DNA of 25,110 nt, taken from NCBI GenBank assembly GCA_017549745.1, contig JAFYUA010000240.1, positions 1-25,110 of the forward strand, written 5' to 3'. The position numbers were made by a program, and so were the translations under genes. Positions 1 through 24,729 of the stretch are shown one piece after another (position 1 is the first letter of the stretch; every line of letters begins with the position of its first letter). This stretch comes from Clostridia bacterium (GTDB lineage: Bacteria > Bacillota > Clostridia > UMGS1810). A model generated the notes under the pieces. The model was not told the DNA's origin and searched no databases. It saw nothing but the letters and a program-made list of their open reading frames with translations.

Positions 1-290
1 ACACCGGGGAGCATGTTGGCGCCGATGCTATTGCACACTACCCTGTTGCCCCTCGACTCAAAAAGCGAGCAGAGGAGATTGTTGGTGGTGGTTTTGCCAT
101 TGGTGCCGCACACCATGACAATGGGGCCTTTGAGCTGCAGAGCCAAGCGGCGAAGCAGACCGGGGGAAATGCGCAGGGCAAAGCCGCCGGGTGCTGAGGT
201 GCTCATCTTGCCCGCCAGGCGCCCTGCCACTGTGAGAAGCTTGCACGCAATAATGGCGATAATATCTCTTAGTTTGTTCATGCTTATCAT
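1..290 (-). CDS. murT: MurT-like Mur ligase family protein (lipid II isoglutaminyl synthase subunit), N-terminal part; runs off the window start
   Basis: Not in the ORF track. Manual translation from ATG 290 (or ATG 281) gives MISMNKLRDIIAIIACKLLTVAGRLAGKMSTSAPGGFALRISPGLLRRLALQLKGPIVMVCGTNGKTTTNNLLCSLFESRGNRVVCNSIGANMLPG. It contains the Mur-ligase P-loop GTNGKTTT, the MurT-typical N-x2-GAN-x3-G motif and the upstream 'S-x-PG' motif. AAAGGA RBS upstream. Confidence 0.85.
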   Translation of the reverse strand, partial: MISMNKLRDIIAIIACKLLTVAGRLAGKMSTSAPGGFALRISPGLLRRLALQLKGPIVMVCGTNGKTTTNNLLCSLFESRGNRVVCNSIGANMLPG

Positions 291-313
291 ATCCTTTAAT
301 TTGTCTATTGTTA

Positions 314-760
314 TTATGCCGCGGGGAAGCCTGTGAGATACACAAGCAGGCAATCCACCAAAACACCTGAAGCAGAATAGATTATCCAGCGCACCGAGCT
401 ATGCAACGAGCATGCCACATATTTTTCCTTGTTGACCCAGCGGTGGAAAGGAATGAGCATAAACACCAATGCCACTGCATCGATTGCCAAAAGCGCTGCA
501 AAGTCACCTATGATAAGAAGCGAGAGGGTGTTGCCAAGGTCGGGAATCACAAGCCAGAAAAGAAGCTTGGCTACAGCACCTACAATCACACAAAACCTGA
601 AAATTACCTTGTATTCACCCAAAACACGCGATTCACCGCCTTTGTCACGAAGGTGGTCGGTTTTCATGCATTTGAAGCCTGTGTAGAATGCTACAAAGCT
701 GAGAGCAATTGATGTTACCACCAATGCAACCCTTACACAAAAGAATAAAAATGCCAGCAT
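314..760 (-). CDS. hypothetical multi-pass membrane protein (148 aa)
   Basis: ATG with AGAAAGAGG RBS, 17 nt downstream of the previous gene's stop. About four hydrophobic segments. No recognisable family. Confidence 0.7.
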   Translation of the reverse strand: MLAFLFFCVRVALVVTSIALSFVAFYTGFKCMKTDHLRDKGGESRVLGEYKVIFRFCVIVGAVAKLLFWLVIPDLGNTLSLLIIGDFAALLAIDAVALVFMLIPFHRWVNKEKYVACSLHSSVRWIIYSASGVLVDCLLVYLTGFPAA

Positions 761-777
761 ATATTTATACCTCTTTC

Positions 778-1440
778 TTAATTATTGTCAATATGGGCAA
801 AAGGGAGAGACTGTGCAAAATCGTTCCACTTTTCACGCAATTGGTCTATGCACTCCTCTGCCTTATCGGTCACAGGCTCAAAGAGCACTGCATACCTTTG
901 CTTAGCCTCGACTGCATTGGCTTTGAGAATATCTTTCTTTTCCTTTAGCTCCCCTACCTTGGTCTCATTGAGAGTGTTGGCAGGATTTTGAACTGCCGTG
1001 GCGATATTCCCTGCTGCAAGCTCAAGCTTTCGTGCACAGCTCTGACTAAAGCTTGAGCGCCTCAGATGACTCATCTGATGAGTATATGCAAGGATTCTCT
1101 CGTTGGCGGGGTTATGGATGCTCACCATGCACACCACAAACGATAGCCACCCAACAATAGGAAGCACAACGCGGCGGTTTTTGACGGCAAGCCTGAGAAG
1201 CTCAAGAAGATAGAGACCCAAAACCTTGACGATAACACCAAAGGTGAGTTCTTCTTCGTCTATGTAGTGACCTATGCGTTTGATAATGGGCTGCATATAG
1301 TTGATGTTGAGCTTGTTCCTGGCTTTTTTTAGCTCACTGCGATATATGCGCGTGCGCTCGCTCTGAGGCATTGGCGCATGGCACGCGCAGCACATTGGGT
1401 CGGCAAGATTATTAACTGTCTGACAGGTACAGGTCCACAT
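778..1440 (-). CDS. RanBP2-type zinc-finger membrane protein (220 aa)
   Basis: Strong RBS (GAGGAGGTG). The N-terminus WTCTCQTVNNLADPMCCAC fits W-x-C-x-C-x3-N-x6-C-x2-C. One or two central hydrophobic segments (TFGVIVKVLGLYLL, VVLPIVGWLSFVVCMVSI) and a charged helical C-terminus. Confidence 0.75.
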   Translation of the reverse strand: MWTCTCQTVNNLADPMCCACHAPMPQSERTRIYRSELKKARNKLNINYMQPIIKRIGHYIDEEELTFGVIVKVLGLYLLELLRLAVKNRRVVLPIVGWLSFVVCMVSIHNPANERILAYTHQMSHLRRSSFSQSCARKLELAAGNIATAVQNPANTLNETKVGELKEKKDILKANAVEAKQRYAVLFEPVTDKAEECIDQLREKWNDFAQSLPFAHIDNN

Positions 1441-2551
1441 CGGGTGTCACCTCCTCTTGGGTATTGATAGCGTGTATTTCTTTGGCATACACGCTCAGAT
1501 GAACATGCTCGGGGTGCATCATAAGCTTTGCGCCTTCACTGCCCTCGGGCACAATCTCATAGGTGGCAGGGTTTTTGCCACCGCGTGTGAACACATCACC
1601 GATTTTTGCCTTTTGTTCGGTGAGAGCATATTCACGCTCTATCTTTGAAAGCGGCTCAAAATCGGCATCGGGGCGCACAACGGGCGTGACAGTCCTTTTG
1701 CCAAAATCAAACGAAAGCCCCCTATTTTGCATCTCGGTATGCACTGATTCGCTTATGGCAACGGGATTCCAAAAGACCCTCTCTCTGCCCTGAACGGGGA
1801 AAAGAATGAACGGATGAGGAAGAAAGTCATAGCGTATCATAAACGCTTCGACATACAGAATCTCATCAACACAAGCACCGAGAATTTCCTCAATATTGCG
1901 GTCTATCATTTCTTTGCCCTTGTAGCGCACAAGCTCTGAGTCAAGATGGTCTTTGACCTCGTCGCTTAAATCGCGCCCGATGGAATCAACAGGCAAAAAG
2001 CGCTTGTAGCGGTCAGGGTTTTTTTGCCAATAGAACGAGTCGATACCCGTGGAATTCTGCCACAGCTCATGGCTGAGCAAGGTGCCTGTGATGGCTTCAA
2101 ACTGCACCTGCATCACTGTGTCGAACACCTGAATGTTTTTGCCGTCGGCAAGTGATTCGCGGCCTTTGTCGGTGAGTTCACCGCCAGAAATGTGCTGATA
2201 GGTGTTTTCCATGAGATTGATGATGTTTTGCACCATTTTCAAATCTATGCCGAGCATCTCGGATATGACCTCGGGCGAAGTGACAGAGGCAGCATAGAGC
2301 CTTAGTATGAATAGCTCGATGGAGTCATAGTCCACGCGGGTTCTCTCGCGCACATTGACCGATGCAGTGGCCACAGGGCAAAGGAAAGGATAGAAATATA
2401 AAACCTTGCCGTGAGCGCCAAAGTCTGCCATCTTCTTTTGCCACATGGCAAGATAGCCTGAACCGCGCTGAAGATATTGAAAACGATAGTCCTTTTGGGG
2501 TTCGGCAGCTTCGCCGTTTTGCTGATTTATGTTTTCAGTGTTCATAATCAC
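1412..2551 (-). CDS. helicase-associated protein with N-terminal winged-helix-like region (379 aa)
   Basis: The GTG start overlaps the helicase TGA stop (alternative ATG at 2545). The segment ELFILRLY...SPEVISEMLGIDLKMVQNIINLM...ELTDKGRESL is a wHTH-like pattern ending in the typical LT-x-KG wing motif. No HxKxxxxD (PLD) motif found on reading. Confidence 0.7.
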   Translation of the reverse strand: MIMNTENINQQNGEAAEPQKDYRFQYLQRGSGYLAMWQKKMADFGAHGKVLYFYPFLCPVATASVNVRERTRVDYDSIELFILRLYAASVTSPEVISEMLGIDLKMVQNIINLMENTYQHISGGELTDKGRESLADGKNIQVFDTVMQVQFEAITGTLLSHELWQNSTGIDSFYWQKNPDRYKRFLPVDSIGRDLSDEVKDHLDSELVRYKGKEMIDRNIEEILGACVDEILYVEAFMIRYDFLPHPFILFPVQGRERVFWNPVAISESVHTEMQNRGLSFDFGKRTVTPVVRPDADFEPLSKIEREYALTEQKAKIGDVFTRGGKNPATYEIVPEGSEGAKLMMHPEHVHLSVYAKEIHAINTQEEVTPDVDLYLSDS

Positions 2552-5500
2552 TCAAAATCCTTTGATTTGATATATTCACCATTACCTTTTTTGACCTCGG
2601 TGAGCAAAAAGCTCATGAAGTTTGAAAAGCTCTGGACAGAATTGTCAAGCTCGGGTGAGGTGAATTCTTCTTTTGAAGCGTTGTCTGACGAATCGGGTGA
2701 ACTCTGCTCTTTCTTTTTGGCAAAGCCGAAGATGGGCGGAGCAGTTATTGGGAGAGTGAAGCGCTTTTGGCTCTCTTCTTCCTCCTCTTGGTCATCTTCA
2801 TCATAGTCATAATCATCATCGAAGTCGTAGTCGTCATCATAATCGTCGGCTTCGTCATTGTTGGTTTCTTCGATATCGACATCATATACGACCTCATTGA
2901 ACTCTTCGCGTATCTCTTCGTCATCATCGTCAATAGCATCGGTACAGGTGGTCAAAAAGTCAAAATCACCTATGATGACAATCTGACTTTTACAACGCGA
3001 AAGTGCCACATTGAGACGCCTGAGCTCATTGAGAAAGCCGATTTCGTTGCGGTCATTGCTTCGGGTGCAGCTATAGATGATGATTTTGCGCTCCTGCCCC
3101 TGGAAGCTATCGAGAGTGGCAATCATGGCTTCGATGTTGGAGCGCGACAAATGCGGAAATTCCTTGCGCACAACAGACTGAATTTCCTCTTTCTGACGCT
3201 TGAGCGCCGAAATTATGCCGATGTCACCAAACTTAACCTTACAATCGGGTGACAAAATATCGATTTTTTGGAGCACTTTGGCTATGATGCGAGCTTCACA
3301 TGGGTTGTAGCGGCTCTTTTTGTTGCTCTCGCGGTCATATTCGGTGACCTCACGGCGCACATCATCTGATTGGTCGCTCGTGTCGATGATAACAAGCGGA
3401 CTTTTGAACACCTCGGGTAAGAGAAGCGGCATAACGCCCTTTTTCTTATCGCCTGTGGTGTGATATTTTTTGTTGTAGAACCAGGTGGAGATGATGTCGG
3501 CAACCTCCTCGGGCATACGGAACTGAGTGTTCAGAAGAACCTTGTTGCGCTCGGGCAGACCTTTTTGCTCAAAGAGATATTCAAAAAAGCTCTTTTTGAG
3601 AAGCGAGGTGTCGATGCCCTCGTTGTCACAATGCTCCAAAAGCTCGCGGTCCACACTCGGCGGAATCTGCTTGTGGTCGCCAAGCATGAGGGTGCGTGTG
3701 GCTCTGGACATGGGCACTATGGCATCGTGAATCTGAATCTGACCTGCTTCGTCGATGATGGCAACATCAAAATCCAGATCCTGAACATCACGATTGGTGT
3801 TGATGCCTATGCATGTGGCACCGACAACCGACAGGTGACTTGCCAGGAGATTGGTGAGCACTGTGTTGTCCTTTTCGGACACATTGGTGTGCCAGTCAGA
3901 AAGAACGGTGCGGATTTGCTTGGTTTTCTCTTCGAGGGTAACGATAGCCGAAGCAAAGTCTTCAAGCTCTGATTTATTGGTGGAGAACTTATATGTAATA
4001 TTATCAAACGGAAGATCTGTGGTGATGGTGATGTCGGGCTTTGAGGTAAGATATTCTTCGAGGTTTGCATATTCGGTTTTAACGCGGACAAAATCACCGT
4101 TGCCCAGCAAAGCGATGAGCTCAGCTATTGCAGTGTTGTATAGCCCAACTAATGCAGGAGAATTATCAGCAAGGCGGAAATCACGCAAATATCCCTCAAG
4201 ACGGGCATGCTCTTTTCGTATCCAGCGTGTTTCGCGCATATGAAAGAGTCTGGCAAGGAGATTCTTTCTGGCATCTTCCTGAAGATATATCGCCTTGGCG
4301 GCAAAGTCTTCTTTGGCTTTGGCAAGGTCAGCAAGCTGCTTTGCCACTCTAATTTCCTCGGCGGCAATCTCTGCACCAAGAGAAGCTGCTATGTTCAATT
4401 GTTCTTTTATCTTGGCATAGTAGTCTGCGAGCTGCTCTTTGAGCGAAAATACGCGAGCGAAATTTTCTTTTTCCTCTTTGATGATAGATGTGGCATTATC
4501 GATGAGTGCAAGGGTTGAAGAAATGATGCGATGCCATTTGTCGGAATTGGCAAGGATTTTGTCCTGCATCTTCTGATGCTGATTTTCCAGCATATATGGA
4601 ACCACATTTGCCTGAACCTTTTCGGCATTACCCACACGGGCAATGACAAGGTCTTTGAATTCGGGATATTCCTCCATATAGTCGGCAATTCTATCAAACG
4701 CATTGTCCACTGCTTTGTTGTTCTTTGAAGAAATCAGCACTCTTTTGCGCTGACGCATATAATAGAGCGCCCATTCTACTATAATTGTGGTTTTGCCTGT
4801 GCCCGGAGGTCCGAGAACAAGGGCAAGGTCTTTTGATTTGATGCCTGCCTCAATTGCTTTTTGCTGCATATCGTTAAGAAGCGGCGAACGCTCATTTCTA
4901 ATTTCGTCAATTATGGGCTCGGTGTCGATGGTGTCATCGAAAGGCTCGGTGTCGATGGCATCGGGGTTATTGAACGCCTTTAGCATATACATGGAATTGA
5001 CTTCGCCGTTTCGAAACTTTTCGACCACAAAGTCTCTCACAAGCTTCTGGCATTGGTTGGCAGCTTTGCGGATAATGCCGCCGCTTGCAGGAAGGGCGGC
5101 TTCACTGAACTGGTCCTTGAAGCTCACAACCATGATGCGGCTTGCATCTTGCAACTCTCCCGTTTCGGCTATTCTGCCGCGCATTTCACCAAAGCTCAGC
5201 GCCACAAAGACCTCACTGCCTGTGGTGTAGGCGTCGGTGTCATAATCTTCACACACAAATTCATAAAGATATCGCTTGCGTTTGTCGCCTGAGTGCTTGA
5301 CCGATTTGCGGCTATAGTATGTGATGGGGCGGGTGGCGTCGGCTTTTTCTTGCTCCATATCCTGCTCGGCTTTGGCATAGGCGGTCACCGTTTGCAGATA
5401 TTTTTCGTCAAAATATTCTGCATTAAATTCAAATTCTTCTTTATCGGTCTTTTCTGTTTCGGTGAGGACATATTCCTTGAGAGCTTCATAGCCGTCACGG

Positions 5501-5967
5501 GGCATGTTGTCATTGTAGCGGAGGTTATATTTTGCCTTCATCTTGTCGGCAAGCTGCAGTGGAGCAACATCATGTGCGCGCTGACCGTCAATTATGCGCG
5601 AAAAGATTATGCCCTGCTCTGATATATTGACAAGCTTTACATCATTTTCAATAAAAGCGCGCTTTTGCTTTATGCCAGCAGTGAAAATACCCACAATGCC
5701 CAGGTTGTGATTGTCGTCATCGAATTCAACTCTGACAATATATCCCTTTGCAAAAATATCACAATACACAAGACCGCTTGATGTTTTATCCACATTACCT
5801 ATTTCAAGTACGCGTGCTTCATTGAGAAGAAAGTCCCTTATTGTATATCCGCGCCGGTCCTCCTCTTGAAATTTGTCGGCAAAGGCAAAAAAGACAACAG
5901 GGCATGGTGCACTAAACCATACATTATTGTCGGAAATTTTCAGACCGTGTTTCAGCGCTTCTCCCAT
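2548..5967 (-). CDS. superfamily 1 helicase, Upf1/DNA2/NAM7-like (AAA_11/AAA_12), 1139 aa
   Basis: Q motif LNDMQQKAI, Walker A GPPGTGKT, motif Ia ISSKNNKAVDN, motif II IIDEAGQ, III LGDHKQIPP, IV QFRM, V TLDSFQGQE, VI RRLNVALSRCK. Long helical insertion between Ia and II and an acidic C-terminal tract. RBS AAGAGGTG. Confidence 0.93.
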   Translation of the reverse strand: MGEALKHGLKISDNNVWFSAPCPVVFFAFADKFQEEDRRGYTIRDFLLNEARVLEIGNVDKTSSGLVYCDIFAKGYIVRVEFDDDNHNLGIVGIFTAGIKQKRAFIENDVKLVNISEQGIIFSRIIDGQRAHDVAPLQLADKMKAKYNLRYNDNMPRDGYEALKEYVLTETEKTDKEEFEFNAEYFDEKYLQTVTAYAKAEQDMEQEKADATRPITYYSRKSVKHSGDKRKRYLYEFVCEDYDTDAYTTGSEVFVALSFGEMRGRIAETGELQDASRIMVVSFKDQFSEAALPASGGIIRKAANQCQKLVRDFVVEKFRNGEVNSMYMLKAFNNPDAIDTEPFDDTIDTEPIIDEIRNERSPLLNDMQQKAIEAGIKSKDLALVLGPPGTGKTTIIVEWALYYMRQRKRVLISSKNNKAVDNAFDRIADYMEEYPEFKDLVIARVGNAEKVQANVVPYMLENQHQKMQDKILANSDKWHRIISSTLALIDNATSIIKEEKENFARVFSLKEQLADYYAKIKEQLNIAASLGAEIAAEEIRVAKQLADLAKAKEDFAAKAIYLQEDARKNLLARLFHMRETRWIRKEHARLEGYLRDFRLADNSPALVGLYNTAIAELIALLGNGDFVRVKTEYANLEEYLTSKPDITITTDLPFDNITYKFSTNKSELEDFASAIVTLEEKTKQIRTVLSDWHTNVSEKDNTVLTNLLASHLSVVGATCIGINTNRDVQDLDFDVAIIDEAGQIQIHDAIVPMSRATRTLMLGDHKQIPPSVDRELLEHCDNEGIDTSLLKKSFFEYLFEQKGLPERNKVLLNTQFRMPEEVADIISTWFYNKKYHTTGDKKKGVMPLLLPEVFKSPLVIIDTSDQSDDVRREVTEYDRESNKKSRYNPCEARIIAKVLQKIDILSPDCKVKFGDIGIISALKRQKEEIQSVVRKEFPHLSRSNIEAMIATLDSFQGQERKIIIYSCTRSNDRNEIGFLNELRRLNVALSRCKSQIVIIGDFDFLTTCTDAIDDDDEEIREEFNEVVYDVDIEETNNDEADDYDDDYDFDDDYDYDEDDQEEEEESQKRFTLPITAPPIFGFAKKKEQSSPDSSDNASKEEFTSPELDNSVQSFSNFMSFLLTEVKKGNGEYIKSKDFE

Positions 5968-6101
5968 TTTATCACCTCTTTTTGCACAGGCAAGGTGCTG
6001 AGCGCTTCGAGTTCTTGCTCGCTAAGATTCAAAAACTCGCGGTCATATTCATCCAAAAGCTCAGCTATTGATTTTACCTGATTGTTTTCTTTAGCAGACA
6101 T
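5952..6101 (-). CDS. small protein (49 aa) between kinase and helicase
   Basis: ATG at 6101 preceded by GGAGGAG. Translation MSAKENNQVKSIAELLDEYDREFLNLSEQELEALSTLPVQKEVIKWEKR. It overlaps the kinase 3' end and the helicase start, filling the otherwise 106-nt gap. The track's longer start at 6152 lacks such an RBS. Confidence 0.6.
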   Translation of the reverse strand: MSAKENNQVKSIAELLDEYDREFLNLSEQELEALSTLPVQKEVIKWEKR

Positions 6102-6937
6102 TCTATCGCTCCTCCGTCGCGCAAGCGTTTTTTGGGGTTGTAGGCAAGGCACTGCCTGAGTATGTCATCAATCTGCCTCGGCACATTGGGATTGACCTTG
6201 GTGATGAGGGGAATGTTTTTCCACTCACCCGTTTGCTTGTCGAGCACCAGATCCTCTCCAAGCACAAGCCGTTTGCCGCAGAGTAGCTCATACATAATAA
6301 GCCCGAATGAAAACACATCCACTCTTGATGAATCGGCACTTCCTGAAAAAAGTGCGCTCTGCTCAGGCGACTGATAGCCGAGTGTGCCTGTGCCGCGCAT
6401 GGTGCGCGAAGCGGATATACCAAAATCGACAAGGTAGATTCTCTCGTGAGGATATGTGCCCTTTATGATAATGTTTTGCGGTTTGAGGTCTTTGTGCTGA
6501 GTGTAGTCACCCATACCCGGGATTTTGCGGTGAATGCTCCTTAGAACTCCTGCAATGGAGGCAAGGCGCCTGAGATTTTTGAAGGTGGTCTCGCGTTCGA
6601 GCACATATTGACTGTCAGCGTCTATTTTTTTGGCAAGGGTGTCACCCTCTATGTATTGCATGACAATGTAGAGGCGTGTGCCGCGATAGTAGCTATAGTA
6701 TATCACGGGAATGTTGGCATCGTGCGACTCCAATTTTGCGAGCACATTGACTTCATTCATATATGCCCTCAGAGCAGTCTGATTGGCGGCATCGATGACC
6801 TTGATGCCCACCACTCTGCCTGTGCCGACCTCGCACGCCTTGTAGAAAGCAGTTTTGTTCTCAGCCGATTCATACACTGTGCTCTGAATTATATATTTAT
6901 AATCTTTGTGGATTGAAACCTCATTGCTTTGCTGCAT
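6074..6937 (-). CDS. Hanks-type Ser/Thr protein kinase, stand-alone catalytic domain (287 aa)
   Basis: VVGIK lysine, alphaC Glu (NEVNVL), catalytic loop HKDLKPQN, DFG, GTLGYQSPEQ, DVFSFG and R of PKKR. No TM or PASTA domains. Starts 4 nt after the upstream stop. Confidence 0.92.
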   Translation of the reverse strand: MQQSNEVSIHKDYKYIIQSTVYESAENKTAFYKACEVGTGRVVGIKVIDAANQTALRAYMNEVNVLAKLESHDANIPVIYYSYYRGTRLYIVMQYIEGDTLAKKIDADSQYVLERETTFKNLRRLASIAGVLRSIHRKIPGMGDYTQHKDLKPQNIIIKGTYPHERIYLVDFGISASRTMRGTGTLGYQSPEQSALFSGSADSSRVDVFSFGLIMYELLCGKRLVLGEDLVLDKQTGEWKNIPLITKVNPNVPRQIDDILRQCLAYNPKKRLRDGGAIECLLKKTIR

Positions 6938-6941
6938 ATTT

Positions 6942-8432
6942 TTATACCCTCTCTGCTAACACAATTTCTCTTCTGATTACTTTGAGCAGCTCTCCAAGTG
7001 TGGGTCTTGCTTTATATTCATTTTTTATAACACTTGTTATAATTTGGTGAAACTCAGGTGACATATTCTCTCTGATGGCTTCAAGATTTTGGGCAAGGGT
7101 TTCGTCACTCGCATTGCCAAAGAGCACATAGAGCGCAATCTTGGCAACTGCAAACACATCCACCTGCTCCCAGTCGGGTTTGGAACCTTTGGCAAAAGCG
7201 CCCATCTTGATTTCATTTGGTGCATATGGGTCGCGGGCGCCCTTTAGCGCAAATGCATTTGGCCCCACTGTAAGATCCGACGGCACGGCAACGGAAGAAT
7301 CCATGACCTTGGAGTATTCAAAATTGCCTATGCGCACACTGCAGCCCTTGGGAGTGGGAGTGATGAAAATGCAGGTGGGATGCAGGTTACGATGATGAAT
7401 AGACACAGAGTCGGTTATATCGATAAGAGAATACAAAATCTCAACAATATCCTCAATAATGCCAAGCTTGAGAGTGAGCACATCATTGGGGAAACGAGCT
7501 GAATAATCACGGAGGAATTTTTCATATTCATCACGCTGATTGAGCATAAAGGTGTTTTCTTCGGTGAGATAGCAAAGAAATCTCACCCTGCAATCGACCG
7601 CGGTGGGAATTTCCTCAGACCAAATAGGCATCTGAGATATGCGCGAGTTATATTTTTTGATTGTGTCCATAGCCATAAGGTCGCGAAATTGGGTGACATC
7701 GCCGTCACTGTCTTTTTCAAAGCGTCGGATTATGGCATAGCGGCACTCTTCCCTGCCCTCGTAGTGTTCTATCTTTCGGCATTTGTAGCTTTTGATTTTG
7801 GGCGGTTGACCATGAAATGAAAACATCGGCTTGATGACCTCATAGTCACCTATAGGCAGAAGGTCATAGGTTTCATAGCCCTTTATTTCCGCCACACGAA
7901 CATTGTCGCTCTTGCGCACATATGCCTCGCGTCTTTCGTTGGGTGCAATGCGCGATATCTTTTTGCCCATGGCATAGCCATATACAAGCAGATATAGTGA
8001 CTTAAACACCTTGGCAGCCTCTGCCTCGGCATTTTTACTGTAGACAATATCGGTTTCCACCTTTTCGATGGTGGTGAGAAGCTTTTTCACGCTTTTTTCC
8101 AGAGGACTGTGGACTGCATCATTGCCTGTGCTTCTCACAAGGTTCATGTCATAGCTCACCGAGGTGTCAAGATAGCCGTTGGCAAAACAATATTGCATTT
8201 TGTCCACAATGGTAGAAAGACCTGCAGCCTGCTTTTGGTCATAATCGGTGGGCACCTGCACACCGTTGATGTCGAGCACTGCATCAAGAAAGCTCTCCAC
8301 AGCGGTGCGGGCACGAGTGGAGATATTGAACGGATGGGTGCGCGCGGTGCGCTCACAATCCACACAATGAGTGTAGAGCTGATTGTAGCCTTTCAGTCTG
8401 GAATCTTCATTTTTCATAAAATCAAATAGCAT
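6942..8432 (-). CDS. DUF4145/HEPN-like domain fused to a kinase-like (pseudokinase) domain (496 aa)
   Basis: Likely start is ATG 8432 (AAAGGA RBS, 8-nt spacer) rather than 8477. The N-terminal RTAVESFL...RSTGNDAVH matches the DUF4145 pattern (R-x2-GN-x-A-x-H). The C-terminal kinase fold has degenerate motifs: AIIR, HRNLHP, GNFE, YAPNE, DVFAVA, RPT. Confidence 0.75.
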   Translation of the reverse strand: MLFDFMKNEDSRLKGYNQLYTHCVDCERTARTHPFNISTRARTAVESFLDAVLDINGVQVPTDYDQKQAAGLSTIVDKMQYCFANGYLDTSVSYDMNLVRSTGNDAVHSPLEKSVKKLLTTIEKVETDIVYSKNAEAEAAKVFKSLYLLVYGYAMGKKISRIAPNERREAYVRKSDNVRVAEIKGYETYDLLPIGDYEVIKPMFSFHGQPPKIKSYKCRKIEHYEGREECRYAIIRRFEKDSDGDVTQFRDLMAMDTIKKYNSRISQMPIWSEEIPTAVDCRVRFLCYLTEENTFMLNQRDEYEKFLRDYSARFPNDVLTLKLGIIEDIVEILYSLIDITDSVSIHHRNLHPTCIFITPTPKGCSVRIGNFEYSKVMDSSVAVPSDLTVGPNAFALKGARDPYAPNEIKMGAFAKGSKPDWEQVDVFAVAKIALYVLFGNASDETLAQNLEAIRENMSPEFHQIITSVIKNEYKARPTLGELLKVIRREIVLAERV

Positions 8433-8533
8433 AACGGTTATCCTTTGTGAAAGAAATTTAAATGATAATAGTGTCAAGGCGCGAGATAAGTGAATGTAAA
8501 ACCTTCTCCTATTGCCTATGGTATCCCAAAGGT

Positions 8534-9166
8534 TTATATTTTACTTCTATATAGCAAATACGAATACACTGTTGGAATAATCACAATTACAAAAATAGTA
8601 ATCATAAACAAAATTGTAAATTTTAATAGTCCTGCTACAGTCATTAATATACCGCTGATAATCCAAAGCTTTCCTGCAAGTTTATGCGTCTTATTCCAAT
8701 TTTCCTCATCGTGCAAGGTCCAGGGAAGTCTGATTCCAATAGTATAGTTTTGTTTGCACTTCGGAAGAATAAAACCAAGAACAAAAATTACAACTCCAAC
8801 AAAAACAAACATTATGTTTTCGACATTTACTCTATATCCCAATGCATTACCATAGATACAAACTCCGCATATCAAAGAGCAAATAGGAATTATGCTTATA
8901 ACAACGGAAATTACTTTGTTATTTATATTCTTTTTTCTTGGATCAGCATTTGTAGCAATGATACATATTAAATTTACAATTGTCAGCAGCGCCGGAAGTC
9001 CGACTACTGCAAACAGTTTACTGCTATAGCCTGTAGGCTCACCATTCCAACCGAAACTTGTTGCTATATTCTACGGAAGTCTGCCCCATACAATAAATCC
9101 AAAAATCATCGGCAATAATGTAATTATGGAAGAAATAATTATATTAAATTTATTGTTTTTTATCAT
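8534..9166 (-). pseudogene. sdpI: SdpI/DUF1648-family immunity membrane protein interrupted by an in-frame TAG
   Basis: The frame opens at ATG 9166 (AGGTGG RBS): MIKNNKFNIIISSIITLLPMIFGFIVWGRLP*NIATSFGWNGEPTGYSSK... It continues in the same frame into NYTIGIRLPWTLHDEENWNKTHKLAGKLW, the SdpI signature. The TAG is codon 32 (9071-9073). The track shows only the 113-aa C-terminal part. Confidence 0.8.
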
Positions 9167-9314
9167 ATAACCACCTAAATTTTGTTTTAATTAATATGTG
9201 TGTTATCGCAACTTATTAAACTATCATTTTTTGGTACAGTTTTTGGATTAGCTCGCATTCGATAGTATATGTAAATATTTAAAAGCGGCAAACCAATCTT
9301 TGATTTTCATGGAC

Positions 9315-9344
9315 TTGACACGAATAAGTCTATACCAATATAAT
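9315..9344 (+). promoter_or_regulatory. consensus sigma70/sigmaA promoter on the plus strand
   Basis: TTGACA (9315-9320), 18-nt spacer, TATAAT (9339-9344). Both hexamers are perfect. It points antisense into the esterase gene ending at 9371. Confidence 0.55.
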
Positions 9345-9370
9345 AGAGCCGACTCATTATCTTCGCATCT

Positions 9371-10132
9371 TTACAATAATTCCATTTTTGTTCTGTTATC
9401 ATCTTTTTCATTTGGTTTATTATAATAGTTCAAGTTATAACTTTCAAACTTTTGGTACGCATTGAAATACCGTATTCCAAATTCCTTCAATGCTGCGGCA
9501 TTAAAGTGTAGGTTATCCGGATTTGCCCCCAGACCATCGGCCGATACATAGGCGCAATTGGGATATTCTTCAGCAATTTTTCTGAGTGAACGATTTATGT
9601 GATGGTAGTTTTTCAGGTCTTCATCCAGAGTGCAATTCAAAAGAAAATCTCCTAAACCACCAATAAGGATTGGTAGATTCGGCATTTCTATATGTTTTCT
9701 AAGTTCATTCATAATAACAGTAAAATGTTCCTGATAAAGTGGATATCTTTCCGGGCTACAATCTCCTTCACCCTGATGCCAGATCACCCCAACCAAATGC
9801 GAGGTTCTCATAGCAAGTTTGGTACAATTTACAGCGTTATTAAAAAGCAGTCCGCCAGGTTGCCATTGTTCCAAACTCGTACCACCATCAGCACAAGGTA
9901 TGATGCCAACTTCAACGCCAGGATGAGAATCGGAATAAGCTTTTGCAAAGCTCTCAGCCAGGCAAGTACCCGAAAACGGGCGATCTGGGTTTACCGGTCG
10001 ATACATTGTCTGCCATCTGCCGTTGCGAAGGACTTTTAATTTGTCACCACAAGTGTCAAGCTCTTCTGCTTCATCATAAAATCCTCTGCCGGCAGCATTG
10101 GACTGGCCTATTAACAAAAATGAATGTATCAT
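9371..10132 (-). CDS. SASA-family (DUF303/CE6-like) carbohydrate acetylesterase (253 aa)
   Basis: Motifs LLIGQSNAAG, GGTSL-x2-W, WHQGEGD and DNLHF. AAGAAAGGG RBS. Confidence 0.88.
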   Translation of the reverse strand: MIHSFLLIGQSNAAGRGFYDEAEELDTCGDKLKVLRNGRWQTMYRPVNPDRPFSGTCLAESFAKAYSDSHPGVEVGIIPCADGGTSLEQWQPGGLLFNNAVNCTKLAMRTSHLVGVIWHQGEGDCSPERYPLYQEHFTVIMNELRKHIEMPNLPILIGGLGDFLLNCTLDEDLKNYHHINRSLRKIAEEYPNCAYVSADGLGANPDNLHFNAAALKEFGIRYFNAYQKFESYNLNYYNKPNEKDDNRTKMELL

Positions 10133-10183
10133 AATTCAAAACCCTTTCTTTATTTTATCAAAACACTATGTAATGATATAATC

Positions 10184-10217
10184 ATTGCGAGGCATAAGGT
10201 TTAGATGCAAACCTTTT
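10184..10217. repeat. 34-bp direct repeat copy 1 (hairpin-forming)
   Basis: ATTGCGAGGCATAAGGTTTAGATGCAAACCTTTT. Matches 10939-10973 with one substitution and one indel. Contains the perfect stem AAGGTTT/AAACCTT with a 6-nt loop. Confidence 0.85.
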
Positions 10218-10241
10218 TATCCTTTAACCAAAAATCATTTA

Positions 10242-10910
10242 TTAAAGTTGTTCTAAAAACTTTTTCAATTTATGTGAAATTACTGCATTTCCATTATCAT
10301 TTGGATGCAATCCATCAGGAATGTAGTTTTCCTGAATTTCTTTTATCTCAGGTTGCAATCCGCTTGTTGCAAACAAATCCAATACGGGAAGGGAATAATA
10401 TTGTGCAACTTCTCTGATTATATTTACATATTCTTTCAATGTTCCAAAATCACCGGGTTCTTTTCCTTCTGGAATTTTTGTTTCACCAATTCTATGAAGC
10501 GGTGTCATAATCACGATGGTTTTTCCAATATATTTTTTAATGAGTCCACTGAACAAATAATGGCAGGCTCCGTAAAAGGTTTCCGGCGTTCTGTCAGAAA
10601 AGCTGCCTATTCCTGCATCTCCGTGCCCATAATCATTTGTTCCGCCAAAAACAACTACAACATCTGCATCATCATCCATTTGTTCAAATCTTTCACAAAA
10701 AGAATTTATGTCCACATAGTCATCTTTTGGTCTTGCCGTTGTTCCCTTTTGCAAAGCAAACCTCGTACCACTTATTCCATAGTTTCTTGCAACTGCCAAA
10801 TCGGCTTCCTTTTTCAAAACTGAGTGGTATATCGTCTGTTCACAACTCGCTCCCACCCCCTGTGTAATACTGTCTCCCAAAAAATTGATTTTAAGACCTC
10901 TTAATTCCAT
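10242..10910 (-). CDS. SGNH/GDSL hydrolase (222 aa)
   Basis: Block I FLGDSIT, block III GGTNDY, block V DGLHPN. AAAGGAG RBS. Confidence 0.92.
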   Translation of the reverse strand: MELRGLKINFLGDSITQGVGASCEQTIYHSVLKKEADLAVARNYGISGTRFALQKGTTARPKDDYVDINSFCERFEQMDDDADVVVVFGGTNDYGHGDAGIGSFSDRTPETFYGACHYLFSGLIKKYIGKTIVIMTPLHRIGETKIPEGKEPGDFGTLKEYVNIIREVAQYYSLPVLDLFATSGLQPEIKEIQENYIPDGLHPNDNGNAVISHKLKKFLEQL

Positions 10911-10938
10911 GCTAGTTATCTCCTTTGTAAATTTATTA

Positions 10939-10973
10939 ATTGCGAGGCATACGGTTTAGATGCAAAGCCTTTT
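10939..10973. repeat. direct repeat copy 2 (35 bp)
   Basis: ATTGCGAGGCATACGGTTTAGATGCAAAGCCTTTT; near-identical to 10184-10217. Confidence 0.85.
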
Positions 10974-11006
10974 GATGTAAAGTTCATATTAAGTTAGGAT
11001 AAAAAA

Positions 11007-11231
11007 TCAATCGACTTGTATAAATCCTTCTAACCAAGAACCAACATTTAATTCATATTCGCTAATATAAAAACATTCGTCATCATATTTATTGAACCCC
11101 GGAAGCAATTTGTATTTAGACACTGCATTTTCTGCCATTTGTCTACTTTCGAAAATTCCAAGTGTTTTAGTTTCCGTATATTCAAGGTTTTCTCCATAAT
11201 CATAAGCATGTTCTAATAAATACACTTTCAT
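11007..11231 (-). CDS. small hypothetical protein (74 aa), DUF7336-like
   Basis: GGAGGT RBS. The pattern VYLLEH-x-Y...K-x-LGIFESR-x2-AE-x-A-x6-LPGF...FYI-x-EY-x-LN-x3-W-x-EGF resembles the DUF7336 family as recalled, not searched. Confidence 0.65.
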   Translation of the reverse strand: MKVYLLEHAYDYGENLEYTETKTLGIFESRQMAENAVSKYKLLPGFNKYDDECFYISEYELNVGSWLEGFIQVD

Positions 11232-11343
11232 ATCAATATTACCTCCATTTCAAATAGAATTAATTTTTTCACCAAAATTCGACATAGTTCGAGTCAAGTC
11301 AGACGAAAATTATATATCTATACCTGCGCTTTCACTTTCATAA

Positions 11344-12279
11344 TTACTGTTTTAACTGACTTTTCTTTGCACTCTTCGTGGTGGATGATATTATGTATTT
11401 GGGTCTGCCCTTGATTTCCTCATAGATGCGAGCAATATAATAGCCAATGATGCCAAGGCTTATCATGATGATGCTGCCTATGAAAATGGTTATGATGATA
11501 ACGGTGGTCATGCCCTCGAGTGCTCTGCCGACTATCTTGTCGATAAGTGCCCATATGCCGAACACAACTGATATAAAAAGCATAACAAATCCAAGAACGG
11601 TTACCGTTTGCATTGGGGCTGTGGAATATGAGGAAATGTTGGAAATTGCGTATTTGATAAGTCCGCGAGTTGACCATTTGGACTCGCCGCCCACACGCTC
11701 CCTTACCTCAAACTCAACTGTGGTTTTGTTGTAGCCCACCCAATAGGAAATTGCTCTGAAAAATCCCCTCTCGGGCATTTGGTTGAGCACATCGATTACC
11801 TTGCGGTCAAGAAGCTTAAAATCAGACGAATTGGTCATGTCAAAGCCCGCCATGCGGCTGATAACGGAGTAAAAAGCTTTTGCACCGATGCTATGCAGCT
11901 TCTTCTCCTGCCCGCGCTCGCTTTTTATGCCCTCAACAATTTCGTAGCCTTGCTGCCACAGACGATACATTTCGATGATTTTTTCGCTTGGATGCTGAAG
12001 GTCGCAATCGATGACAACGGCGCAGTTGCCGTTTGCTGCTGCAAGACCTGCAGATATGGCGGCTTCTTTGCCAAAGTTTCTTGAAAAATGCAAGCCCACA
12101 ACATTTTCTGCTTCACAGGCAAGCTCGTTGATTATGGCATAGGTGCGGTCACGGGAACCATCATCTACAAAAACAAACTCACTTTCGATGCCATGTGCAC
12201 ATAGCAAGGAATACACCTCGTTATATGCAGGTTTTATGCATTTTTCTTCGTTATATGCGGGAATAATTACGGATAACAT
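11344..12279 (-). CDS. GT2 polyprenol-phosphate glycosyltransferase, GtrB/YkoT-like (311 aa)
   Basis: SVIIPAYNE, VDDGSRD, FSRNFGKEAA, IDCDLQHP and SDFKLLDR motifs, plus two C-terminal TM helices. Confidence 0.92.
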   Translation of the reverse strand: MLSVIIPAYNEEKCIKPAYNEVYSLLCAHGIESEFVFVDDGSRDRTYAIINELACEAENVVGLHFSRNFGKEAAISAGLAAANGNCAVVIDCDLQHPSEKIIEMYRLWQQGYEIVEGIKSERGQEKKLHSIGAKAFYSVISRMAGFDMTNSSDFKLLDRKVIDVLNQMPERGFFRAISYWVGYNKTTVEFEVRERVGGESKWSTRGLIKYAISNISSYSTAPMQTVTVLGFVMLFISVVFGIWALIDKIVGRALEGMTTVIIITIFIGSIIMISLGIIGYYIARIYEEIKGRPKYIISSTTKSAKKSQLKQ

Positions 12280-12299
12280 AATAAATCACCTTGCTTAAT

Positions 12300-13658
12300 T
12301 TAAAATAGTTCTTCAAATCGTGCGACACTCATGGGGCGGTAAAAATAGTAGCCCTGAAGCAAATCGGCGCCTGCCTCAACAGCCTTTAACTTCTGCTCCT
12401 CGGTTTCTATGCCTTCGCACAAAGTCTTAAAGCCCAAATCATGGGCAGTCTGAATGATATTTTTGAGGATTAAAAATCCAGTTTCAGTTATTGCATTTTG
12501 AGTGAGAGCTTTGTCGACCTTGACAATGCTTATGTCAAGCTCTGCCAAATCGTCAAAAGAAGCATAACCTTTGCCGAAATCGTCTAAAAGAATTGAAACG
12601 CCTTTTTCTTTCAGGCGGGTCAGATTTTTGGTCATTGCACCCTTTTCTGAATCGGTCAGTTCTTTATCTTCAAGGATTTCGACTGCAAGGCATGGATAAT
12701 CGACGCCATATTTTTCCACTATTGCTATTATATTATCTGCAAAGTCTTCATCGCAAAGAGTGGAGCGAGAAAAATTGATTGTATATACATATCTTCTGCG
12801 CTGCTGCTTGTCATTTGAAATCCATTTGCAGTTTTTTTCAAAGATATAGTAATCAAATTTTTCATTGAGTCCCACATTATTTACTGCAGAGAGAAAATGA
12901 TGGGGAGTTAAAATTCCCTCGGTGGGAGAATTGAGCCTTGAAAGTACCTCAGCACCTATAATATTGTCCGTCTTTGCATCTAAAATGGGCTGATATTCAA
13001 GAAAAAATCTGTTGTTGTCGATTTCATTTTGTATGTTGTTTTCTATTTTGATTTTGCGTTCAAATTCTTTGCCGTTGCTGTTGTCCCACTGGCAATACAA
13101 AACCTCACGGTCTTCAGCCATGCTGCACGCCTGCTTTGCTCTTGAAAGCGCGGTTTCAAACGAAACCTCATTTGAGCTTGTGGTGTGGTAGCCAAAATAC
13201 ACGCGGGCAATATTGACGGCATCGTGTGCCGCAAAAGCTCTGCCTATTTCTTCATAGCATTTTTCGATGCACGCAATTATATCGGCTGAGTCCAAAGCAT
13301 TTAAGGCAACAAAATTGTTTTTGCCATAAAGCGAAATTTCGCCGTTTATATCAAGGCACAAGCTTTGAAGAAGAATTTTTTGGATTTGTTCATACATTCT
13401 CAGGGCTTTTGGCTCAGAGTACACCCTTTTCATGCCGTCAAGAGACACAGAAACATAGACGATGCAGCGGTTTTTGCGCTCTTCGCCTATCTTTTCAAAA
13501 TCGTTTTCAATTTTGCCTGTGCTGCAAAAGCCTTTTTCCACTGTACCGTTGGCCGTCTTTACAGATTTCATGGTAAAGTACAGACCAATCAGCACCAATG
13601 CAAGAAAGCATATTACAAGAACAGTTATAATTACATAAGGGTACTCAAAAATTTGCAT
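12300..13658 (-). CDS. membrane-anchored degenerate-GGDEF/EAL protein, putative c-di-GMP phosphodiesterase (452 aa)
   Basis: N-terminal TM helix. The GGDEF-like region has no GGDEF motif (YGKNNF). The EAL domain has YQPI, EVL, INFS, VEILE, LDDFG, KVD, EGIE and QGYYF. Confidence 0.88.
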   Translation of the reverse strand: MQIFEYPYVIITVLVICFLALVLIGLYFTMKSVKTANGTVEKGFCSTGKIENDFEKIGEERKNRCIVYVSVSLDGMKRVYSEPKALRMYEQIQKILLQSLCLDINGEISLYGKNNFVALNALDSADIIACIEKCYEEIGRAFAAHDAVNIARVYFGYHTTSSNEVSFETALSRAKQACSMAEDREVLYCQWDNSNGKEFERKIKIENNIQNEIDNNRFFLEYQPILDAKTDNIIGAEVLSRLNSPTEGILTPHHFLSAVNNVGLNEKFDYYIFEKNCKWISNDKQQRRRYVYTINFSRSTLCDEDFADNIIAIVEKYGVDYPCLAVEILEDKELTDSEKGAMTKNLTRLKEKGVSILLDDFGKGYASFDDLAELDISIVKVDKALTQNAITETGFLILKNIIQTAHDLGFKTLCEGIETEEQKLKAVEAGADLLQGYYFYRPMSVARFEELF

Positions 13659-13675
13659 ATGATGTCTCCAAATAA

Positions 13676-15767: not shown

Positions 15768-15769
15768 TG

Positions 15770-16825: not shown

Positions 16826-16829
16826 AAGC

Positions 16830-19342: not shown

Positions 19343-19357
19343 GCCTGCCCTCCTTGT

Positions 19358-21205: not shown

Positions 21206-21225
21206 TAGTATTCCCCCCTAACAAT

Positions 21226-22581: not shown

Positions 22582-22602
22582 TTTTCCATCTTCCTCACAA
22601 AA

Positions 22603-23571: not shown

Positions 23572-23590
23572 ACTAAACAAACCTTTTCTG

Positions 23591-24709: not shown

Positions 24710-24729
24710 TTTTTTCACTCCAGAATTCA

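Follow-up and report, generated by a model that had tools for sequence, protein, structure and literature searches.

The 25,110-nt stretch of DNA analyzed here (the window), from a Clostridia bacterium (GenBank contig JAFYUA010000240.1), begins with a cluster of seven genes that was originally predicted to be an undescribed, possibly anti-phage, system combining a HEPN-pseudokinase, a kinase, and a helicase. The cluster raises the question of whether it is a genuine unit and, if so, whether it is a known defense system, a variant of one, or something with another role. Our answer is that the operon is probably a multigene system directed against phages or MGEs, horizontally mobile and of the Mokosh kind, with a configuration not described before and a proposed kinase/pseudokinase-gated HEPN RNase.

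Organization and conservation of the operon

The features of the region are as follows:

1–290, minus strand, 5' end of murT (Mur ligase-like), a conserved downstream flank outside the system; its translation matches MurT of locus L017
314–760, minus strand, g7, last gene of the cassette; 148 aa with about four transmembrane (TM) segments, based on hydropathy and ortholog alignment
778–1440, minus strand, g6; 220 aa; a zinc ribbon at the N terminus is followed by a single TM segment (about residues 89–111) and a helical C-terminal region
1412–2551 from a GTG or 1412–2545 from the ATG at 2545, minus strand, g5; 377 aa with wHTH and β-rich domains, a nuclease-less "MkoB N-terminal module"
2548–5967, minus strand, g4; 1139 aa, Upf1-like SF1 helicase (COG1112)
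5952–6101, minus strand, g3; 49-aa acidic micro-protein between g2 and g4, overlapping the 3' end of kinase gene g2 by 28 nt and the start of helicase gene g4 by 16 nt
6074–6937, minus strand, g2; 287 aa, Hanks-type Ser/Thr kinase, predicted active (Pkinase E = 3e-30)
6942–8432, minus strand, g1, first gene of the operon; 496 aa, predicted HEPN(DUF4145)-pseudokinase fusion, with an ATG start and a frame open further to a TTG at 8477
6945–7925, minus strand, C-terminal pseudokinase domain of g1 (about residues 170–496)
7968–8432, minus strand, N-terminal DUF4145/HEPN domain of g1 (about residues 1–155)
8109–8135, minus strand, candidate catalytic motif R100-x3-N104-x3-H108 within the HEPN domain
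8433–8460, upstream limit of the conserved cassette; similarity to L017 ends 28 nt before the ATG of g1

The ORF listing confirmed that the seven genes are co-oriented and densely packed on the minus strand between 314 and 8432, and the junctions recomputed from the ORF coordinates (+4, −28, −16, −4, −29, and +17 nt) are identical to those first reported. The original domain call for each gene was also borne out by profile, structure, and alignment evidence. A weak promoter-like site lies at 8494–8465 on the minus strand, and the evidence for transcription consists of small, low-depth fragments only, in two RNA libraries that possibly contain DNA. The remainder of murT lies on G000 contig C271.

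Conservation of gene order in other genomes, which had been named as a check on the original prediction, was found. The complete seven-gene order occurs, with differing flanks, in no fewer than six further contigs of Clostridia from gut or rumen (L007, L008, L011, L014/15, L016, whose g1 is truncated where the contig ends, and L017); positions 1–8460 of the window are 88% identical to positions 9974–18443 of L017. More distant loci (L013, L020, L021, L022, and L023) hold a core of g1, g2, g4, and g5, usually accompanied by a small ORF, with a membrane arm that is CorA-like, fused to g5, or absent. Since the entire order is kept in independent contigs at 24–60% protein identity, the arrangement is far beyond chance, and the seven-gene operon is a real, conserved bacterial unit.

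The first gene encodes a HEPN domain fused to a pseudokinase

The AF2 model of g1 (pLDDT 86, pTM 0.84) has a helical domain (residues 1–155) and a kinase fold (residues 170–496). Sixteen homologs were found, one of which is called a DUF4145 protein by NCBI, and the full-length architecture is common to one AFDB cluster (TM 0.65/0.75). Pfam DUF4145 (PF13643) was matched by 11 of the 16 orthologs (best E = 2.2e-6), and the g1 of the window itself did not reach the E 0.1 threshold for this model; family support comes from the orthologs and from profile–profile comparison. The latter, using hhalign against bona fide DUF4145 domains, yielded a probability of 97.4% (E = 1e-11) and lined up the R..GN...H motif of g1 with the IRKxGNxAAH of true DUF4145 domains. 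Of the motif residues, N104 and H108 never vary across the homologs, and R100 is fixed in the 16 close ones and kept in at least 90% of sequences when distant ones are added. Judged by these comparisons, the N-terminal domain is a member of the DUF4145 family of the HEPN superfamily with a predicted RNase role, and the orthologs' PF13643 matches together with the hhalign result support the earlier suggestion that the candidate effector is of the HEPN type.

For the C-terminal domain, Foldseek searches of the PDB returned the kinases WEE1, PknB, and GAK as best matches (E ~1e-6), and this part of g1 also matches the kinase part of the PADLOC MkoA model (E = 1.7e-12). In the g1 of the window, HRD has become HRN and DFG has become NFE. 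The degeneration extends to all nine aligned g1 sequences, distant ones included, which carry HHR(N/S/F/R/A/M) in the catalytic loop and (N/C/K)F(E/D) at the DFG position, with K or R at the β3 position. The domain has the kinase fold and lacks the catalytic Asp, the metal-binding Asp, and the Gly-rich loop, the features by which a pseudokinase is recognized, and is, as read from the alignment, a pseudokinase whose degeneration is common to all orthologs.

A stand-alone kinase, a micro-protein, and a Upf1-like helicase

In g2, K46, H148, D150, K152, N155, D171–F172, and P191–E192 are invariant in 10 orthologs; with all its catalytic residues in place, g2 is predicted to be an active kinase. 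Its PADLOC matches include mad6 (5e-33), PD-T4-6 (2e-32), and positions 9–277 of MkoA (4e-28). As first noted, the kinase is split from the helicase: g2 is a gene of its own, and the 49-aa ORF stands between it and g4. A same-position open frame with the g3 pattern MS..I..LlDe.D...L...LP..E..W is present in L007, L008, L011, L014/15, L016, and L017, and acidic ORFs of 40–56 aa occupy the g3 position in L013, L021, L022, and L023; no g3-like ORF was found at L020.

The helicase g4 matches AAA_11 (4e-36), AAA_12 (1.5e-42), the IGHMBP2-family model TIGR00376 (2.5e-63), and, over profile positions 432–1099, PADLOC MkoA (PDLC03920; E = 5.3e-110). The sequences of motifs I, II, III, and VI are preserved (GPPGTGKT, DEAGQ, GDHKQ, and VALSR); an insert of about 350 aa with abundant predicted coiled coil separates the first two. 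The C-terminal tail is acidic (31 D/E in 50 aa) and is conserved only within the seven-gene clade.

Membrane components

A motif, MWxCxC...N...CxxC...MP..ER.RIY, is conserved in five orthologs of g6 and contains the W-x-C-x-C...C-x2-C of the zinc ribbon; the TM segment was called by hydropathy. The distant locus L022 also encodes a g6-like zinc ribbon–TM protein, and g7 was found in every seven-gene locus. In L013 and in the Azospirillum plasmid locus L029, g5 is followed by a gene for a CorA-like membrane protein (PADLOC CorA, 1e-11 and 4e-7), and in L023 g5 is fused to a multi-TM domain. The TM calls for g6 and g7 and the membrane proteins of related loci uphold the claim that membrane components have been added to the operon. 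A TM protein was also looked for in L020 and L021, which keep the core, and none is present.

This return of a membrane component in several forms (g6/g7 in the seven-gene clade and L022, CorA-like proteins in L013 and L029, the g5 fusion in L023) could mean that the membrane proteins are the true effectors, causing depolarization or leakage, with the HEPN domain of g1 binding RNA or acting as a sensor without catalysis, and the two kinase-fold proteins relaying the signal from helicase to membrane. The listing of CorA-like proteins by PADLOC as CRISPR-associated membrane effectors fits such a scheme. We nevertheless consider it rather unlikely, as L020 and L021 hold the core without a TM protein, and g1, found at all the loci examined, never varies at N104/H108 and keeps R100 in at least 90% of sequences, which argues for HEPN catalysis.

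The MkoB-like protein g5 carries no recognizable nuclease

Residues 69–136 of g5 (AF2 model pLDDT 77) form a MarR-like wHTH (Z 10.3), and the protein matches the wHTH family PF24409 (7e-5). Its matches to PADLOC MkoB (3e-9 and 6e-6) align only over profile positions 10–124 of 610, so that the likeness to MkoB is firm over about 110 residues only; the hhalign comparison with a single MkoB is weak (probability 31%), and structural matches outside the wHTH have low TM scores. A profile search with g5 returned 203 cluster representatives, among them the helicase–g5 fusions P0071 and P0174. In AFDB clusters, the g5 module of about 300 aa occurs in proteins named as PLD-, PIN-, Swt1-HEPN-, or Apea-HEPN-domain-containing, with matches to the PLD-named proteins at E = 1.5e-7. 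None of the seven proteins matches any PLD Pfam model, and the HxKx4D motif is not conserved, which, with the restricted MkoB alignment, agrees with the original view that PLD is missing from the operon. By comparison, PLDc_2 was found at residues 337–464 of the canonical control MkoB (L028).

The region of g5 that follows the wHTH has no PDB match and is conserved, with P245, P261, S265, and F296 invariant. These properties might be expected if the locus were a canonical Mokosh type I system in which the β-rich C-terminal part of g5 (about residues 170–360) is an unrecognized nuclease that takes the place of PLD, with g1 in an accessory regulatory role. This is, in our judgment, very unlikely: the region has no invariant acidic, His, or Lys constellation of the catalytic type, the HKD motif is absent, and the same module sits in AFDB proteins that additionally bear PLD, PIN, or HEPN domains, so that an adaptor fits better than a nuclease. 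By homology, g5 is shown to be an MkoB-like partner that has retained the N-terminal wHTH/β module and lost the PLD nuclease.

Distribution and genomic context

The cassette is rare: of 399 genomes sampled across the class, 2 carry it, and of 16 from the genus, 2 do. Within the genus, its presence next to murT is polymorphic, and four congeners have murT with no cassette within 4–10 kb. The GC content of the cassette is 0.45–0.49, versus 0.32–0.39 in the adjacent 8.5–11.5 kb stretch. A defense-island setting was seen at only some loci, and in the window the neighbors are polysaccharide genes, esterases, and murT. Genes adjoining related loci include a type II-A retron in L020, Csx20 in L008, and an integrase in L021.

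A role outside immunity, as a niche-specific RNA surveillance or signaling operon (for example, in stress-regulated RNA decay or envelope signaling) or as a selfish, toxin–antitoxin-like addiction cassette, would accord with the surface-polysaccharide genes that adjoin the cassette here and in L023, with the absence of matches when g5 was queried against plasmid and phage collections, and with an antitoxin function that the acidic g3 could have, yet we give it little credence in view of the very sparse and patchy distribution with presence/absence polymorphism at one locus, the defense proteins that are the closest scoring families for three operon proteins, the retron, Csx20, and integrase neighbors at other loci, and the fact that variable surface-polysaccharide regions are frequent sites of accessory genes.

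Comparison with known systems

The proposed relation to Mokosh type I is supported by PADLOC matches to the MkoA helicase (5e-110), the kinase part of MkoA (4e-28), and the MkoB N terminus (3e-9). Like Mokosh type I, the operon encodes a Upf1-like COG1112 helicase, a homolog of the MkoA kinase domain (g2), and, right after the helicase, an MkoB N-terminal wHTH module. In Mokosh, however, kinase and helicase form one MkoA polypeptide and the partner is a PLD (HKD) nuclease, as in the canonical control L028 (Pkinase 13–225 and helicase 604–1145 in one protein, plus a PLD protein), whereas here they are separate genes, no PLD nuclease is encoded anywhere in the operon, and a HEPN-pseudokinase, an acidic micro-protein, and two membrane proteins are added. 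The published definition of Mokosh is a helicase plus a PLD nuclease (Millman et al. 2022, bioRxiv 10.1101/2022.05.11.491447), which rules out membership. Homology shows the functions of MkoA to be divided between a stand-alone Ser/Thr kinase, g2, expected to be active, and the Upf1-like helicase g4, and it shows that g1 joins a DUF4145/HEPN domain with intact catalytic-type residues to a conserved pseudokinase. The predicted RNA-cutting HEPN fused to a dead kinase, plus the membrane proteins, appear to stand in for the DNA/RNA-cutting PLD enzyme that Mokosh usually has.

A full match to a described system was not found in the PADLOC defense models, NCBIfam, or the literature searched; the gene set as a whole has no describing model in the defense-system, Pfam, and NCBIfam collections. 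The comparison originally drawn with PglW of BREX type 2 is weak: the matches (E = 0.003, for g1 with PADLOC PglW, and 1.5e-8) fall far under the model cut-off (NCBIfam, 32.8 bits versus 990), and other BREX genes, including those of the PglX/PglZ type, were not found in the window. MADS mad6 and PD-T4-6 are the best-scoring kinase models for g2 (E ~1e-32), but all these kinase matches fall well short of the equivalog cut-offs (NCBIfam MADS6, 77.6 bits against 460), and the remaining genes of both systems are absent.

Among HEPN systems, g1 shares with RAZR/PD-T7-4 the DUF4145 HEPN subfamily and the R-x7-H spacing of RAZR R146/H154 (PMC13017515). RAZR drives ssRNA cleavage, and replacing R146 and H154 with alanine abolished phage defense (PMC13017515). 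RAZR acts as one protein, bears a zinc finger at its N terminus, and becomes active when it assembles on phage ring proteins (PMC13017515); in g1, by contrast, the HEPN domain precedes a pseudokinase, and the gene belongs to a helicase/kinase operon. In addition, g1 does not match the PADLOC PD-T7-4 models. In the type IX retron (RT, HEPN, and wHTH protein), the wHTH protein cages the HEPN nuclease until infection, when host RNA is cleaved and the infection becomes abortive (bioRxiv 10.64898/2026.07.14.738597). The operon likewise pairs a HEPN protein with a separate winged-helix protein; unlike the retron, it has no reverse transcriptase, an Rfam search of the operon found no msDNA, and the sensor would be the helicase/kinase module.

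In eukaryotes, RNase L and IRE1 are fusions of a kinase or pseudokinase to a KEN/HEPN RNase, and the HEPN census of 2013 records no fusion of DUF4145 to a kinase (PMC3710099). Both RNase L/IRE1 and g1 combine a kinase-fold regulatory domain and a HEPN RNase domain (predicted in g1) in one polypeptide. The likeness is an architectural analogy only, not membership: the HEPN domain comes first in g1 and belongs to DUF4145, whereas KEN is C-terminal in RNase L/IRE1, g1 has no ankyrin or lumenal sensor, and a separate, predicted active kinase is encoded next door.

A model for kinase-gated RNA cleavage

In RNase L and IRE1, dimerization of the kinase-fold domains forms a composite HEPN active site. 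We infer an anti-phage role and gating by phosphorylation for the operon; gene fusions and gene order suggest protein–protein contacts within the system. A complex of helicase and g5 would survey RNA or RNA–protein intermediates of infection, and sensing would switch the g2 kinase, which may phosphorylate the g1 pseudokinase or act on it through kinase–pseudokinase pairing. The HEPN domains would then dimerize into an active RNase, analogous to IRE1 and RNase L, and RNA cleavage would stop translation, leading to abortive infection.

More tentatively, and with considerable doubt, the operon may be a bacterial functional counterpart of the IRE1/RNase L switch, in which an active kinase coupled to the helicase governs a HEPN RNase via a fused pseudokinase, inside a modular "split Mokosh" family whose MkoB-like adaptor is able to bring in exchangeable outputs (PLD, PIN, HEPN, and CorA-like or other membrane proteins). 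If true, this family would show how separate genes assemble immunity based on kinase-gated RNA decay.

The acidic micro-protein g3 could be a bound inhibitor or a kinase substrate, and the membrane proteins g6 and g7, whose counterparts in distant variants are CorA-like, may provide an anchor or a second, membrane-directed output. A membrane output and a HEPN output are not mutually exclusive.

Gene content of the operon

Homology shows that the operon encodes a helicase and a kinase, both intact, together with a pseudokinase that is conserved, a HEPN domain bearing catalytic-type residues, a nuclease-free adaptor of the MkoB type, and membrane proteins. Seven minus-strand ORFs occupy positions 314-8432 of the window, which confirms the seven genes of the original prediction, and the junctions claimed there (+4, -28, -16, -4, -29, and +17 nt) agree exactly with the ORF coordinates.

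Genes of the operon, in order along the minus strand
6942-8432, minus strand: g1, 496 aa, HEPN domain and pseudokinase
6074-6937, minus strand: g2, 287 aa, kinase
5952-6101, minus strand: g3, 49 aa, micro-protein
2548-5967, minus strand: g4, 1139 aa, helicase
1412-2545/2551, minus strand: g5, 377/379 aa, similar to the N-terminal part of MkoB
778-1440, minus strand: g6, 220 aa, membrane protein
314-760, minus strand: g7, 148 aa, membrane protein

A HEPN domain joined to a pseudokinase

The AlphaFold2 model of g1, built with 16 homologs as input (pLDDT 86, pTM 0.84), has two domains, namely a helical domain (residues 1-155) and a kinase fold (residues 170-496) that resembles WEE1, PknB, GAK, and other kinases (Foldseek, E about 1e-6). 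The full-length architecture was matched by one AFDB cluster (TM 0.65/0.75). Because Foldseek matches of full-length g1 were dominated by kinases, the HEPN assignment was made by profile-profile comparison. Compared with bona fide DUF4145 domains from related genomes, the N-domain profile gave an hhalign probability of 97.4% (E 1e-11), with the R..GN...H motifs in register. The Pfam DUF4145 model was matched by 11 of 16 g1 orthologs (best E 2.2e-6) and was not reached by the window's own g1 sequence; one ortholog carries the NCBI name DUF4145 protein. The HEPN superfamily includes DUF4145 (PMC3710099). N104 and H108 are invariant, and R100 is invariant in the 16 close homologs and at least 90% conserved when distant homologs are included. 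The R-x7-H spacing equals that of R146 and H154 in RAZR (PD-T7-4), a DUF4145 HEPN RNase that drives ssRNA cleavage and in which alanine substitution of these two residues abolished defense (PMC13017515).

In every ortholog, even from loci with 18-27% identity, the kinase-like half of g1 is missing a glycine loop and both the catalytic and the DFG Asp; HHR in the catalytic loop is followed by N, S, F, R, A, or M, and the DFG position reads N/C/K-F-E/D. This half is therefore a conserved pseudokinase and not a recently decayed kinase. Recent paralogy of g1 and g2 was ruled out, as BLASTP between the two was not significant.

Two further DUF4145 domains were observed. Directly 5' of the g1 ortholog in L008, a metagenomic locus, a 140-aa ORF (L008:3737-4159, plus strand; g1 HMM match 2.8e-32) comprises the DUF4145/HEPN domain alone, without pseudokinase, and this locus thus has an extra solo HEPN. 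The source genome has a second DUF4145 domain (G000 contig C84:4426-4698, score above the Pfam cut-off) within an 1110-aa open frame unrelated to the operon.

Kinase, micro-protein, and helicase

The g2 protein is a Hanks-type kinase (Pkinase 3e-30); ten orthologs share K46, the H-x-D150-x-K-P-x-N155 loop, D171-F172, and P191-E192 without variation. The defense models on which it scores highest are mad6, PD-T4-6, and the MkoA kinase portion (positions 9-277, E 4e-28). Judged by sequence conservation, g3 is a real micro-protein gene: an acidic open frame of 40-56 codons lies between kinase and helicase in 11 of the 12 loci examined, despite diverged DNA, and these frames have an LlDe.D...L...LP pattern in common.

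The g4 protein is an Upf1-like SF1 helicase (AAA_11, AAA_12) with motifs I, II, III, and VI intact; against the helicase portion of PADLOC MkoA its E value is 5.3e-110. At E 1e-100, the long MkoA model PDLC03921 matched no genome, not even the controls, so this search carried no information; comparison with PHROGs gave generic kinase and helicase families only. The C-terminal tail of g4 after motif VI (window 2548-3010) is strongly acidic, with 31 D/E in 50 aa. This tail is kept across the seven-gene clade (20-33 D/E per 50 aa) and is absent in the distant core-only variants and in a canonical MkoA, which have tails of about 55-76 aa with 4-12 D/E. In the region encoding the N-terminal part of g4 (window 4916-4958), an exact 16-nt direct repeat with 27 nt spacing encodes a duplicated nine-residue stretch (...IDTEP... 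repeat).

Adaptor-like and membrane proteins

The g5 protein aligns with MkoB models over roughly the first 115 positions only (E 3e-9) and is weakly similar to a wHTH-PRTase-associated Pfam family. In its structural model (pLDDT 77), residues 69-136 form a MarR-like winged helix (Z 10.3), and PDB sequence and fold searches found no counterpart for the flanking beta-rich parts. A module spanning about residues 30-320 recurs among AlphaFold DB clusters in similar-sized uncharacterized proteins and in longer proteins named PLD, PIN, Swt1-like HEPN, or Apea-like HEPN domain proteins (E 1e-7 to 1e-4); the TM values of these matches are low because domain orientations differ. We take g5 to be the adaptor portion of MkoB, lacking an effector. 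No PLD domain or conserved HxKx4D motif was found in any of the seven protein families. In g6, a conserved zinc ribbon at the N-terminus is combined with a single TM segment, and g7 has about four TM segments; an ESM Atlas search with g6 gave nothing usable.

Conservation of gene order

All seven genes occur in the same order in the loci listed here, the more divergent of which have protein identities of 24 to 60% to the window.

Loci with the seven-gene order
L007: MAG contig in NCBI
L008 and L009: JGI metagenomes
L011 and L012: seven-gene loci
L014 and L015: seven-gene loci
L016: congeneric genome; g1 truncated at the contig end
L017: DNA 88% identical to the window (compared over window 1-8460)

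A search of 1.84 billion cluster representatives with the g5 profile gave 203 matches at E below 1e-3, two of which (P0071 and P0174) are helicase-g5 fusion proteins; no contig was listed for P0071. A core of g1-like protein, kinase, helicase, and g5-like protein is present in L013 and in the distant loci L020, L021, L022, and L023, the latter being all four of the distant g5-family members with retrievable context. With 203 such representatives in public data and the same core in four of four distant contexts, the core is not a one-off. A small acidic ORF is found in L013, L021, L022, and L023 and not in L020. What follows g5 varies.

Genes following g5 outside the seven-gene loci
L022: g6-like ZnR-TM protein and multi-TM protein
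L013: CorA-like membrane protein (PADLOC CorA 1e-11)
L029 (Azospirillum plasmid, split kinase/helicase): CorA-like membrane protein (PADLOC CorA 4e-7)
L023: multi-TM domain fused at the C-terminus of g5
L020 and L021: no TM protein

L029 (Azospirillum lipoferum 4B plasmid AZO_p1, 137980-152292) represents a split variant from a proteobacterium, carried by a mobilizable megaplasmid. The protein of its first gene (683 aa) has a kinase-like domain at the C-terminus and an N-terminal domain unlike that of g1 (weak SpoIIE/PP2C match, E 0.003); next in order are genes for a kinase (269 aa), a helicase (1076 aa), a g5-like protein (419 aa), and the CorA-like protein (423 aa).

Relationship to known defense systems

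Parts of Mokosh are homologous to the animal piRNA factors MOV10L1 and PLD6; to our knowledge, the mechanism of Mokosh is still unknown. The operon is predicted to work like Mokosh type I, to which three of its components are homologous, but the two defining features of that type, the STK-helicase fusion and the PLD nuclease, are missing, and for this reason we do not file the operon as a member; the missing PLD rules out true membership. In L028, a canonical Mokosh I locus on a Nostoc plasmid that served as control, the STK-helicase fusion is accompanied by a PLDc_2 protein, and the locus adjoins a CBASS operon. Identity with RAZR was ruled out, since there is no single zinc-finger-HEPN protein and g1 has no PD-T7-4 match, and a relation to BREX-2 was ruled out by scores far below the cut-offs. 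The operon is distinct from BREX-2, MADS, and retrons.

PADLOC-DB 2.0, NCBIfam 20, and Pfam contain no model for g1, g3, g5, g6, or g7 as a system component, and a literature search of incomplete coverage found no description of the gene set. The 2013 HEPN census gives no kinase fusion for DUF4145 (PMC3710099). Domain content and recurring gene order support, at the level of architecture and conservation, the earlier interpretation of a Mokosh-related system that is built differently. We regard the operon as a natural variant with separate genes for kinase, helicase, adaptor, and effector, and with a HEPN-pseudokinase in place of the PLD nuclease.

Proposed function

A defense function is probable. 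Much more tentatively, a kinase-gated HEPN mechanism is predicted and appears plausible. An infection-specific RNA or ribonucleoprotein would be sensed by a helicase-g5 complex, g2 would pass the signal to the g1 pseudokinase, and this would license HEPN dimerization and RNA cleavage, leading to abortive infection; g3 could be an inhibitor or a substrate, and the membrane arm a second output or an anchor. The gene fusions P0071 and P0174 support a link between helicase and g5, and the fusion in L023 supports one between g5 and a membrane domain. Recurrence of a membrane or CorA-like arm suggests that the system has two outputs.

These steps gain plausibility from two precedents. In IRE1 and RNase L, the HEPN active site is assembled when the kinase-fold domain dimerizes, and a HEPN-pseudokinase with a partner kinase would be a bacterial parallel. 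IRE1 and RNase L are both given as KEN/HEPN fusions (PMC3710099). In the type IX retron, a HEPN nuclease is caged by a wHTH protein until infection (bioRxiv 10.64898/2026.07.14.738597). Since its parts lie on separate genes, the system is genetically dissectable, with sensing, kinase signaling, and effector release each mutable alone.

Distribution and genomic surroundings

The system is rare: of the 399 genomes that were sampled from the class, 2 have a g5 match, and of the 16 genomes in the genus, 2 encode a helicase ortholog. Near-identical DNA occurs in many animal gut metagenomes, mostly bovine; two RNA libraries held small low-depth fragments only, which are too sparse to show transcription. 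L017 shares the downstream murT flank with the window and differs upstream alone, ruling out entirely different flanks, and four congeners have murT without g1-g7 within 4-10 kb. The remaining loci are flanked by quite different genes. L020 has a type II-A retron immediately downstream, and Csx20 and an integrase neighbor the system in L008 and L021, respectively. Scans for Rfam families, tRNAs, and repeats revealed no tRNA, Rfam RNA, or flanking repeats accounting for mobility, and tblastn of g5 against plasmid and phage collections gave zero matches.

The GC content is 0.45-0.49 in the cassette versus 0.32-0.39 in the adjacent stretch (window 8500-11500), which carries SdpI-family, SASA-esterase, and GDSL-esterase genes, separates the cassette from a polysaccharide cluster with GC of about 0.40-0.45, and is absent in L017. 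This surface-polysaccharide cluster (window 11344-25110) has a Wzy_C polymerase and additionally encodes an EAL protein and a GGDEF-domain protein; a Wzy_C cluster also adjoins the system in the distant L023 (10311-16894). The shared neighborhood may be a coincidence or may reflect a variable-region location common to both.

In a relative from run X12, the contigs are interrupted between murT and the stop codon of g7 (window 302-304). At this break, the loose contig ends (GGACTCGAAC... and its complement) look like the T-arm and 3' end of a tRNA gene, suggesting an insertion at the g7/murT junction in that strain.
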